Part shown: piece by piece, positions 2,781 to 51,446 of the stretch
Layout of the letters: every line of letters begins with the position of its first letter
Position numbering within the stretch: the stretch's first letter is position 1
Source: Mobula hypostoma
Lineage: Eukaryota
DNA: 64,000 nucleotides
Direction: 5' to 3'
Assembly: GCF_963921235.1 (NCBI RefSeq)
Contig: NC_086107.1
Location: 110,424,001 to 110,488,000, forward strand
The notes under the pieces: model-generated
Seen by the model: only the letters and a program-made list of their open reading frames with translations
What the model was told of the DNA's origin: nothing
The model's database searches: none
Made by a program: the position numbers and the translations under genes

Positions 2781-3080
2781 GTGCCTATCCCAGCATGCAA
2801 AGTCAGCTCTGGCAGACTGGGTGGATGAGATTGACAGTAAGATCCATGGTCAGGAAGGTGGCTCTGCTGAGAGCCAAGGGCACGACGAGGCACGGGAGAC
2901 GTCATGGTCATCCACTGCAACCATGGAAGACCCCAGCTTGTGACGACTCCTTGCACCACTGGACCCGGACTTCCGAGATCGAGAGAGTGGAACTGCCCCA
3001 GTGTAACAGCTTTTCCACTTTTAAAAACTCTCCAGCACTTGTTTCCTGTCACTGTCAGACACGGTGGACAACCACCACTA
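2781..3080 (+). mobile_element. 3' part of the non-autonomous family also seen at 6167-6726
   Basis: Shares ctatcccagcatg, ggtcatccactgc and ccactgga blocks with 6400-6650. Confidence 0.7.
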
Positions 3081-3680: not shown

Positions 3681-3747
3681 AAGCCAGCTCCTGGATCATT
3701 GCCTGGTTGCAAACTGTTCGATGAAATTGCCAGGAATGTAATGCCTT

Positions 3748-3898
3748 TGTGTGTACGTGTGCGCACGTGCGTGCGTGTGTGTGCGCATTTGTGTATGTGC
3801 ATGAGTGTGTGTGTACGAGAGTGTGTGTTTGTGTATGTGGATGAGTGTGTATGTGTGCACGAGAGTGTGTATGTGTGTGTTTGTGTGTGTGTGTGTGC
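3748..3898. repeat. Degenerate (TG)n microsatellite
   Basis: Direct reading. Confidence 0.95.
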
Positions 3899-5909: not shown

Positions 5910-6856
5910 TCAAGGACATCTTCAAAGAGAGGTGTCTTCCGTCATCACGGACCCCCACCACCCAGGACATGCCCTCTTGTGATTGTTACCATCGTGAGGT
6001 ACAGAAATCTGAAGACACACACTCAGCGATTCAGGAACAGCTTCTTCCCCTCTGCCATCCGATTTCTGAATGGGCATTGAACCCATGAACACTACCTCAC
6101 TACTTTTTTTTTGTTTCTGTTTTTGCATCACTTTTCTTAATTTAAGTACTTAATATGCACATATATGGGGTGTATGGGGTGTCAGGGAGGGGTAGCACCT
6201 CTGGTGGGGGACATGTTGTGTCCTTTTCAGGGCGGTTAGTCCACCTTTGGTCCCCACCTGGGTCTCAGCTCTCACCTGTGGCTCCCCGTAGCTGTTTGCA
6301 TGCGACAGCGGCCACGCCCCGGGCAACGGCTTCGACAAGCCGGCTAAACCAGGTGAGGGTAGCCGACGGGCCTCAAAACCTCGGTGAGATAGGGAGTTGT
6401 CTATCCCAGCATGTGAAGACAGACTCTGGCGGATTGAGCGGACGAGACCAATGGAAGGTCCAACGGTCAAGCAGGCGGTCTCTGCAAGTGTCGTGGAACG
6501 TGTAGAGCAGGACAAGACACAGAAGACGTCCTGGTCATCCACTGCGCCTAGTCCCATCTCCAGCTGTCTCGACTCTGTCTTGCCACTGGATCCAGATGGG
6601 AATTGGGAAGAGAGAGTGAGGCTGACGCTGCGCAACTCTCCCTCACTTAAATCCAAATCACGCGCTAGTCTCGACACCATCATAATGGTGTCGAGGTCCT
6701 CATCGATGTCGATGATGGACGAACACATGCACATATATACTTACTGTAATTCAGTTCTTTTCCCTTTATTTATTGTGTATTTACTGTACTGCTGCCGCAA
6801 AGTTCACACATTTCACGACGTCTGCCGGTGATATTAAACCTGATTCTGATTCTGAT
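5910..6856 (+). mobile_element. Rex1/Babar-type LINE 3' end hosting the 6167-6726 insertion
   Basis: RYRNLKTHTQRFRNSFFPSAIRFLN; (TCTGAT)n tail near 6840-6856. Confidence 0.8.
6167..6726 (+). mobile_element. Full-length non-autonomous non-LTR element (RTE-like by inference) with candidate 5' HDV-like ribozyme
   Basis: 12-bp TSD atgcacatatat at 6155-6166 and 6727-6738; homologs at 2781-3080 and 50990-51446. Confidence 0.85.
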
Positions 6857-7311
6857 CTTGTGGTCTTCGAAGGGCACCACCTCTGCATCACCTCACTGGG
6901 ACTGTTCACTGAGATTCTGCATTCAAGTGTTTGAGGACACTACAGAAGGGAGGACACTGACTCGGATTAAAGATCAGCTTTATTTGTCACAAGGGCCGTT
7001 GAAACGTTGAAGCCCATGGCACGTGAAATGTGAGATGCACTGGTGGCACCAACAACCAACGCAGTCTGAGGCTGCGCTGGCGGCAGCCCGCCAGTGTCGC
7101 CATGCTCCCAGCACCAGCGTAGCGTGTCTGCAACTTACCAACCCTAGTCACGTGTCTTTGAGACTGCAGCACCCGTAGAAAGCCCATGCGATCACGGGGG
7201 TGGGCGGGGCGGGGAGCGTGCAAACCCCTTACAACAGCGGTGGGGATCGAATCTCGACTGGTGACCGCTGGTGCTCTAAAGTGTTGTGCCAGCCGCTACA
7301 ATACATGGCTT

Positions 7312-50989: not shown

Positions 50990-51446
50990 GCTGACGATCA
51001 TGCCATCAGTGAGAGCTTTTAAAGTGACAACTGGTGCCAATCCACTCTCTTGACCTCAGAAGTCCGGGTCCAGTGGTACGAACAAGGGTCACAAACTGGG
51101 TGGGGTCTTCCTTGGTGTCCATGGATGACTGTGACATCTTCTAATCCTTGTCTCCATGGAGCATTGCAGAGCCAACTATCTGGCCATTGGATCTCCCCAC
51201 AGACCTCAACCGCCCAGTCTGCCGGAGATGACTTCCCATGCTAGGACAGGCATGTCCCTATCTCACCGGGGTACGAGGCTGGCAGTTACCCTCACCTGGC
51301 TTAGACTGCTTGACGAAGTGCCGTACCAGGGCGCGGCCGCTGTTGGGTGCAACAGCTACTTGGAGCCACCGGTGAGAGTTGAGCGTCCAGCGGGGACCAA
51401 AGGTGAGTGAGCTGCCCCAGAATGGACCTGACAAGCCTCTTCCACA
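50990..51446 (-). mobile_element. Diverged, 5'-truncated copy of the 6167-6726 family
   Basis: The reverse complement shares cacctttggtcccc, ggctcc..gtagctgtt, ccaggtgagggta and ggtgagataggga. Confidence 0.8.

Follow-up and report, generated by a model that had tools for sequence, protein, structure and literature searches.

The locus considered here lies in a stretch of 64,000 nucleotides from Mobula hypostoma (NCBI RefSeq assembly GCF_963921235.1, contig NC_086107.1, positions 110,424,001 to 110,488,000 of the forward strand), which we call the window. It raises the question of whether a short retroelement begins with a self-cleaving ribozyme of the HDV type even though the catalytic loop L3, normally of 7-8 nt, is 28 nt long (6283-6310) and contains a hairpin. 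An initial annotation of the window had proposed such a ribozyme as a candidate. In the following, we describe the element and its copies, the fold of its 5' end and the related families in which the same fold occurs, and then consider how the element may be mobilized.

The element, the representative of what we call family A, is a non-autonomous, non-coding and bipartite retroelement of the RTE clade, 560 bp in length (Table 1). The 12-bp target site duplication (TSD) that was said to bound it is exact, and its description as a non-autonomous retroelement agrees with the missing ORF, the TSD and CAA tail, and a UTR and 3' end in common with autonomous RTE elements. A search of the genome (3.48 Gb, 200 contigs) gave 3744 first-look candidates, and the best 39 other copies are 95-97% identical to the element across the full 560 bp. 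Tails of the copies consist of CAA or CCAA repeats, and a TSD of 9-15 bp with at most one mismatch was identified in 15 of 30 copies. An origin from Ingi/Vingi or R2 elements was rejected, since the copies are dispersed among unrelated flanks and body and tail match RTE. The family is also present in the contig sets of four other organisms, where the contigs carry no information on ends or strand; the viral contigs searched for it gave no match.

Three further observations concern the setting of these copies. The element is inserted in another abundant repeat (5910-6166 and 6727-6860), both halves of which match many sites in the window. At 2782-3002 there is a third relative, which resembles family B (see below), is 5'-truncated and is without a ribozyme. 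Elsewhere in the genome, two same-strand family A cores about 576 bp apart (G000:C1:21776331-21777297) possibly represent a tandem pair.

Table 1. Positions of the features in the window (position 1 is the first letter of the window).
Feature	Positions	Strand	Remarks
Left TSD	6155..6166	+	12 bp, exact repeat of 6727-6738
Family A retroelement	6167..6726	+	whole-length copies at 95-97%; CAA/CCAA tails
P1 5' strand	6167..6173	+	pairs with 6314-6320; G6167 = G1, predicted cleavage directly 5'; inter-copy homology ends here
J1/2 (P1.2)	6174..6268	+	95 nt, long structured domain; basal stem 6177-6186 with 6257-6266
Second copy of P1 5' heptamer	6176..6182	+	as a rule paired within P1.2; might be a minor alternative G1
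P2 5' strand	6269..6279	+	11 bp with C6349 bulged; 97.9% of cells paired
P3 5' strand	6280..6282	+	pairs with 6311-6313; invariant; in search pattern for metagenome rows
Canonical 7-nt L3	6283..6289	+	U20, C21-C22 (P1.1) and G25 equivalents; aligns with entire L3 of families C and D
21-nt L3 insert (3' side)	6290..6310	+	6-bp hairpin 6291-6296/6304-6309; missing from families C and D; 17 carriers have 99% of cells paired
P3 3' strand, P1 3' strand (6314-6320), P1.1 GG (6321-6322)	6311..6322	+	
P4 hairpin	6327..6342	+	strands 6327-6332/6337-6342; 84% of cells paired
J4/2	6343..6347	+	C6344 = C75 equivalent, A6347 = A78 equivalent; both 50/50 in family A
P2 3' strand	6348..6359	+	from the pairing alignment
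RTE 5'-UTR-derived body	6397..6670	+	74-76% to family C 5' UTR; alike by eye to 5' UTRs of RTE-1_PSi and RTE-3_AMi (rows of PMC5786205 supplement)
RTE 3' terminus (stem-loop, start of CAA tail)	6686..6726, approximate	+	alike by eye to 3' end of L095 and RTE-1_PSi 3726-3767
Right TSD	6727..6738	+	exact repeat of 6155-6166
Decayed, 5'-truncated family B copy	51164..51405	-	core 51289-51378; runs on to about 50980; 74% to the element

The first 193 nt of the element form the nested double pseudoknot of HDV-like ribozymes, with the helices in the order P1-P2-P3-P1.1-P4. All the parts that the initial annotation had placed (P1, P2, P3, L3, the GG of P1.1, P4, C6344 and a J1/2 of 95 nt) were confirmed in the sequence. 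The core features that define the HDV-like fold have been put into a descriptor, and the element has the fixed ones among those given in the relevant passages (PMC6326823) except one: its J4/2 reads CUAA, not CRRA. The second base of J4/2 is U in families A, B, D and E and G in family C. This deviation counts against the ribozyme reading, as does the A found instead of C at the C23 position in families B and D and in most metagenome rows. Among 50 copies of family A, the equivalents of U20, C21, G39, C75 and A78 are kept in all, those of C22 and G38 in 49 and that of G25 in 48; the C75 equivalent is also invariant in an alignment of 23 rows. P1.1 and U20-G25 do not vary in the pairing alignment and are thus without support from covariation.

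The pair at the predicted cleavage site is a purine-pyrimidine pair throughout, namely G1-C in family A, G1-U in family E and A-U in family C and L165, and P1 position 6 shows a double change in family D and L188. G6316 is private to the window copy, 29 of 30 family A copies having A there, so that P1 of the family is entirely Watson-Crick with G1-C rather than G1-U.

A GC-rich repeat head might resemble a ribozyme by chance, and several searches bear on this explanation. The core pattern matched twice in the window (the element and 51301-51367 on the minus strand) but not once in 100 shuffles, a control of little force because the pattern was drawn from these same sequences. A generic HDV descriptor that leaves the helix sequences free found the core of the element alone in the window and no core in 60 shuffles. 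When L3 was restricted to 7-8 nt, the same descriptor found nothing in the window, in line with the prediction that a 28-nt L3 would be atypical and could be missed by standard descriptors. Genome-wide, there are at least 2110 matches to the exact core pattern, against 0 for the reversed control pattern.

Two results are on the side of chance. The Rfam models of the HDV clan, drz-agam included, gave no match in the window at the gathering threshold, and minimum free energy (MFE) folding does not single out the ribozyme region (z = -0.75). The former is uninformative, since Rfam also misses family C copies with canonical L3 (L105, L108 and two 5' fragments gave no match at E<=10), and so is the latter, since two pseudoknots cannot be scored. 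Also counted against the ribozyme reading are the unconstrained MFE folds, which, with P1 not yet added, are 1-11 kcal/mol lower than the pseudoknot-ready folds; in that of the window copy, the P1 5' strand pairs elsewhere. The shuffle controls, the excess of core-pattern matches, a long P2 that is outside the pattern and the covariation described below all oppose chance resemblance, which the compensatory changes in independent families already refute and to which we assign almost no probability.

The positions at which copies begin were collected in two ways. With a query that includes the 5' end, 30 family A copies show unrelated bases upstream, and G occupies position 1 in 21 of them, position 2 in 27 and each of positions 3 and 4 in 29. 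A second sample was taken with a query that does not include the 5' end, and the starts were judged by eye in 20 of the 39 non-self matches: 14 start within 3 nt of G1, three start 5-9 nt further in and three are more truncated or rearranged, while none extends upstream of G1 or has upstream sequence in common with others. Family B has the same start, and so do 18 of 20 copies of family D, in a sample that was chosen by score and is therefore biased. Full-length 5' ends thus pile up at G1 in the way anticipated for a ribozyme-defined end. Note that an internal promoter at G1 would give the same pile-up, since reverse transcription often runs to the end of the template.

As a separate observation, T precedes G1 (the position of 6166) in 22 of 30 copies, which may reflect either a target preference or selection for U at -1; U at this position favours cleavage of HDV, according to the abstract of PMC1874588.

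Two peculiarities of the fold had been entered as caveats, the J1/2 of about 95 nt and an extra base in the register of P2 and J4/2. Both are present as described, and both lose their weight when homologs are considered. J1/2 folds with -43.9 kcal/mol in the copy L003 and with -29 to -49 kcal/mol in homologs. When P1 and the start of L3 are barred from pairing, each of the 12 representatives forms a J1/2 stem as well as P2, and most carriers of the hairpin form it too. This is the architecture of drz-Agam-2-1, in which a structured P1.2 and a 12-bp P2 strongly raise the cleavage rate, as stated in passages of PMC4908430. The extra base near the top of P2 occurs in most homologs; it is an unpaired C in families A, B and E and others, and is absent in L173 and family C, for which reason we regard it as a feature of the lineage. 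In the window copy itself, private changes at 6262-6263 and 6316 weaken P1.2 and P1.

The P1 5' heptamer is doubled, and the descriptor is satisfied by both 6167 and 6176. The ribozyme could therefore cut mainly at G6176, or switch between the two sites, with the hairpin and the doubled strand acting as a folding switch that sets the frequency of cutting, a reading that partly overlaps the main one. The 3' strand of J1/2 can replace P1' as the partner of the first heptamer in family E and in the window copy, and the starts of L019, of L072 and, perhaps, of L069 are near position 8-10. Against this, by far the most copies begin at G6167, consensus-like copies have the second heptamer paired inside P1.2 (in the J1/2 stem of L003 and L016, with slipped folds close in energy), and exact doubling is absent in families C and D. 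We consider main use of the second site, or such a switch, quite improbable.

The second copy in the window, on the minus strand, had been cited in support of the fold: the terminal U of its P1' would give a G1-U wobble, and its L3 hairpin of 7 bp is perfect but has a different loop. Neither argument stands after comparison with family B, the older sister family to which this copy belongs (about 77% identity among copies). The site at the end of P1' varies in family B as CCCCGG, CCCTGG or CCCCAG, a pattern of CpG decay, and the majority hairpin is that of family A, the P1 of which has G1-C. The terminal U and the different loop are thus best read as CpG and neutral decay rather than covariation.

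The kinship of the element became apparent from family C, to which the protein of another branch, L081, led when used as a query. Family C is an autonomous RTE family, one copy of which has an intact ORF of 1129 aa for endonuclease and reverse transcriptase (Pfam Exo_endo_phos and RVT_1). Nucleotides 231-504 of the element share 74-76% identity with the 5' UTR of all seven family C copies fetched; this identity and the domains of the autonomous partner establish the RTE kinship of the ribozyme-headed element. By eye, the body and the 3' end also resemble rows of RTE-1_PSi, RTE-3_AMi and WALLSI in the supplement of PMC5786205. On the likeness to named RTE UTRs and the layout of the domains, that is, on sequence criteria, the partner family is placed in the RTE clade. 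We also observed two adjoining hairpins at 6670-6720 (together -32.5 kcal/mol), the first of which spans the junction of the 5'-UTR-derived part and the 3' end; a similar hairpin is seen in the WALLSI1A row of the same supplement (PMC5786205). A long-range pairing between the end of the 5' UTR and the start of the 3' UTR, seen by eye in L095, was rejected because 282 of 482 random segment pairs were as good.

Families C and D contain the same ribozyme without the hairpin. In copies L102-L108 of family C, the core is homologous, L3 is 7 nt long, P2 is a perfect helix of 12 bp and J4/2 reads GCGAA. Family D (L116-L135) is non-autonomous and about 370 bp long, also with a 7-nt L3, with a GAA tail wherever a copy was followed to its end, and with double changes relative to family A in both P1 and P2. 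In the alignment, families A and B have the L3 of the C/D type with an additional 21-22 nt ahead of the P3 3' strand. Since C and D carry the same ribozyme with a 7-nt L3, the 28-nt L3 can be described as a normal L3 plus a hairpin of 21 nt. An autonomous element with the hairpin ribozyme was not found among 40 scored matches in the M. hypostoma genome.

The 5' ends of family C are informative in another respect. The P1 5' strand is intact in L105 and L108, and both copies start with it; L108 is flanked by a near-TSD of 9 nt, and no 3' end was located for L105. In five of the seven full-core copies, a foreign tandem-repeat head replaces the first three bases of P1, and in further copies, which acquired different heads, the ribozyme lacks its 5' part or is missing altogether. 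That headed copies have a broken ribozyme is what would be expected, in this small sample, if an active ribozyme removes anything upstream of it.

The heads themselves are diverse. Young family C copies (L095:200-760, L097, L096) have captured GC-rich host sequence as a new 5' head instead of the ribozyme, and other copies have different heads or a pyrimidine-rich tandem repeat. One captured piece encodes a fragment with the glyoxalase fold (Pfam Glyoxalase_4, E 3e-11), which we take to be methylmalonyl-CoA epimerase-like.

L081 (G000:C36:131599259-131602312, minus strand) represents a DUF6451-bearing RTE branch with an open frame of 1018 aa, most relatives of which are broken. The branch has GAA or GAC tails and about 30% protein identity to the family C branch. 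It was considered as the driver of the element through a PF20049 search and rejected, because the 14 pieces fetched have no BLAST match to the element. The GAA tail of family D, which is like that of L081, suggests that the ribozyme head has been shared or swapped between RTE branches.

Homologs in metagenomes were collected with a pattern that consists of P3, the start of L3, P1', GG and J4/2, and does not contain P2, the pairing of P4, the hairpin or the P1 5' strand. P2 is 10-15 bp long in 15 of the 94 matches and at most 8 bp in the other 79, which were dropped; L180 and L198 among the latter look like decayed homologs. An L3 insert that folds is present in 14 of the 15 matches with long P2, some of which are duplicates, and L179 was rejected as a carrier because its insert is a duplication, not a hairpin. 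In most of the retained homologs, the P1 heptamer is the first sequence to follow the unrelated flanks and lies 104-125 nt upstream of P3. L166, L188 and L214 continue with sequence 70-74% like the body of the element, and L193 continues into a frame that resembles the start of the L081-branch endonuclease (44%, E 8e-9 to L081; E 0.001 to L095).

For the analysis of covariation, 17 hairpin carriers were picked by hand (3 of 50 from family A, 4 of 30 from family B and 10 of 14 metagenome carriers), the rows being related to each other; families C and D were excluded, their P2 and P3 having been shifted by the aligner. In this set, 95.4% of the cells are paired, against 38-47% for control structures slid along the alignment, and 17 of 35 pairs show double changes (49 cells), a level that none of 500 shuffles reached. 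The double-changed pairs are distributed over P2 (7 of 11), the L3 hairpin (4 of 6), P4 (4 of 6) and P1 (2 of 7, with one cell each). Those of the hairpin come almost wholly from the four rows of family E and represent perhaps one evolutionary event per pair. The invariance of P3, P1.1 and P1' in the metagenome rows exists by construction, since these parts belong to the search pattern. Covariation, named at the outset as a check on P1-P4, is therefore positive for P2, P4 and the L3 hairpin and weakly so for P1, while P3 is invariant and shows no double changes. With the starts at G1 and the RTE kinship, it agrees with an HDV-like ribozyme fold at the exact 5' end of a retroelement, as the initial annotation had it.

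We consider it very likely, judging from sequence comparisons, that a read-through transcript of the element cleaves itself 5' of G6167 by means of C6344 and is reverse transcribed in trans by an RTE protein. Transcription would start from host promoters, and the RNA would fold into P1, P1.1, P2, P3 and P4, in which the long J1/2 stem and the long P2 would draw P1 and P2 towards each other in the manner of Agam-2. With C6344 as the putative general acid, the backbone would be cut just 5' of G6167, and the RNA would be released with a precisely defined 5' end. An RTE protein, most likely supplied by intact family C, would then bind the 3' stem-loop or CAA tail, and target-primed reverse transcription would insert the copy and create the TSDs of 9-15 bp. 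The 21-nt hairpin would form a peripheral helix after the seventh base of L3, at the site of the eighth base of HDV, which would leave U20-G25 and P1.1 intact; it is probably kept by selection and may be dispensable for cleavage in this lineage. The eighth L3 base of HDV is flipped out and dispensable. It occurs in genomic HDV at the place where the hairpin sits here (bioRxiv 10.1101/2022.09.22.508989, in passages on L3).

Alternatively, the fold could be an inherited HDV-like scaffold that cleaves poorly or not at all owing to the L3 insert, and that serves as a 5' cap, in translation (IRES-like) or in binding of reverse transcriptase, with an internal promoter setting G1. Such roles have precedents in passages of two papers, in which the first 77 nt of L1Tc are both promoter and ribozyme (PMC3383444) and the fold of the R2 ribozyme protects in the manner of a cap (PMC13708176). 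In addition, P1 contains an A-C mismatch in 7 of 30 family A copies, where position 6 is A and its partner in P1' is C. These copies still start at G1, and R2 ribozymes tolerate mismatches in P1 (passages of PMC3774820). A non-cleaving scaffold is at odds with the equivalents of C75, A78, U20, G25 and P1.1, all of which are kept across families only 63-68% identical, and with the headed copies of family C, in which the ribozyme is broken or truncated as loss of cleavage predicts. We thus regard a scaffold of this type as unlikely and self-cleavage as the preferred reading.

How far the element departs from known systems can be stated only relative to the parts of the literature covered. HDV-like ribozymes at the 5' ends of RTE elements (PMC5786205, PMC3774820, PMC6765202) and bipartite non-autonomous RTEs (PMC5786205) are already in print. 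The closest architecture is that of drz-Agam-2-1 (PMC4908430), which has in common the nested double pseudoknot, cleavage at the 5' terminus (predicted here), a structured J1/2 (P1.2) and a P2 of about 12 bp; the present element differs in the 6-bp hairpin after the seventh L3 base, the conserved bulge of P2 near P3 and the doubled P1 heptamer. The ribozymes of R2, R4, L1Tc/ingi and RTE share the exact 5' junction and are kept in non-autonomous derivatives (PMC3774820, PMC4035085, PMC5786205), whereas in the passages covered their length varies in J1/2 and P4/L4 and L3 is short and conserved, with an unusual L3 spacing in Nasonia R2. Genomic HDV and CPEB3 have in common the 7-bp P1, 3-bp P3, P1.1 of CC/GG, U20-G25, C75 and the J1.1/4 stretch (bioRxiv 10.1101/2022.09.22.508989, PMC6326823); their L3 is 7 nt in CPEB3 and antigenomic HDV and 8 nt in genomic HDV, compared with 28 nt here, where the first pair is G1-C. 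Since its L3 is longer than 7-8 nt, the element is a variant rather than a standard member of the HDV-like group.

As a retroelement, it resembles WALLSI3, RTESINE2 and RTE-N of the RTE-1_PSi/RTE-3_AMi group, which also consist of a piece of 5' UTR and the last 40-45 nt of the 3' end with a CAA tail and are alike in sequence (PMC5786205); unlike these, it has retained the outermost 5' end, ribozyme included. Of four probe words taken from the ribozyme half, three do not occur in the supplement examined (PMC5786205) and the fourth matches only tRNA heads. No L3 hairpin in an HDV-like ribozyme was found in the full-text literature searched, which was covered mostly as keyword passages and which left figures and key early papers outside. 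The 5' end of the lizard Vingi-1 element may have a similar long L3; if so, the feature could already be drawn somewhere, patents included.

These comparisons lead to a broader proposal, which we put forward tentatively and at somewhat less than even confidence. Ribozymes with a helix in the catalytic L3 would constitute an undescribed, old and widespread subclass of the HDV-like fold, which heads two RTE branches of about 30% protein identity, has thousands of copies per genome, occurs in unrelated metagenome contigs and is invisible to short-L3 descriptors. The helix would be a functional module that tunes the release of the RNA, for example as a folding switch with the doubled P1 strand, as a guard against dimerisation or as a handle for reverse transcriptase or another protein.

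L3 is part of the active site and has been treated as fixed at 7-8 nt, the known variation being in J1/2 and P4. A covarying helix in L3 widens the HDV fold and offers a new site for engineering, such as aptamer or protein-binding inserts; RTE UTRs are used in gene-writing templates, according to passages of PMC13708176. Censuses based on structure descriptors undercount such ribozymes. A single genome holds natural pairs with the hairpin (families A and B) and without it (C and D), as well as autonomous copies in which the ribozyme is intact or broken. What the hairpin does is thus directly testable with the A/B and C/D pairs, and the idea that 5' ribozymes decide which RTE derivatives gain new heads, raised in passages of PMC5786205, becomes testable as well.
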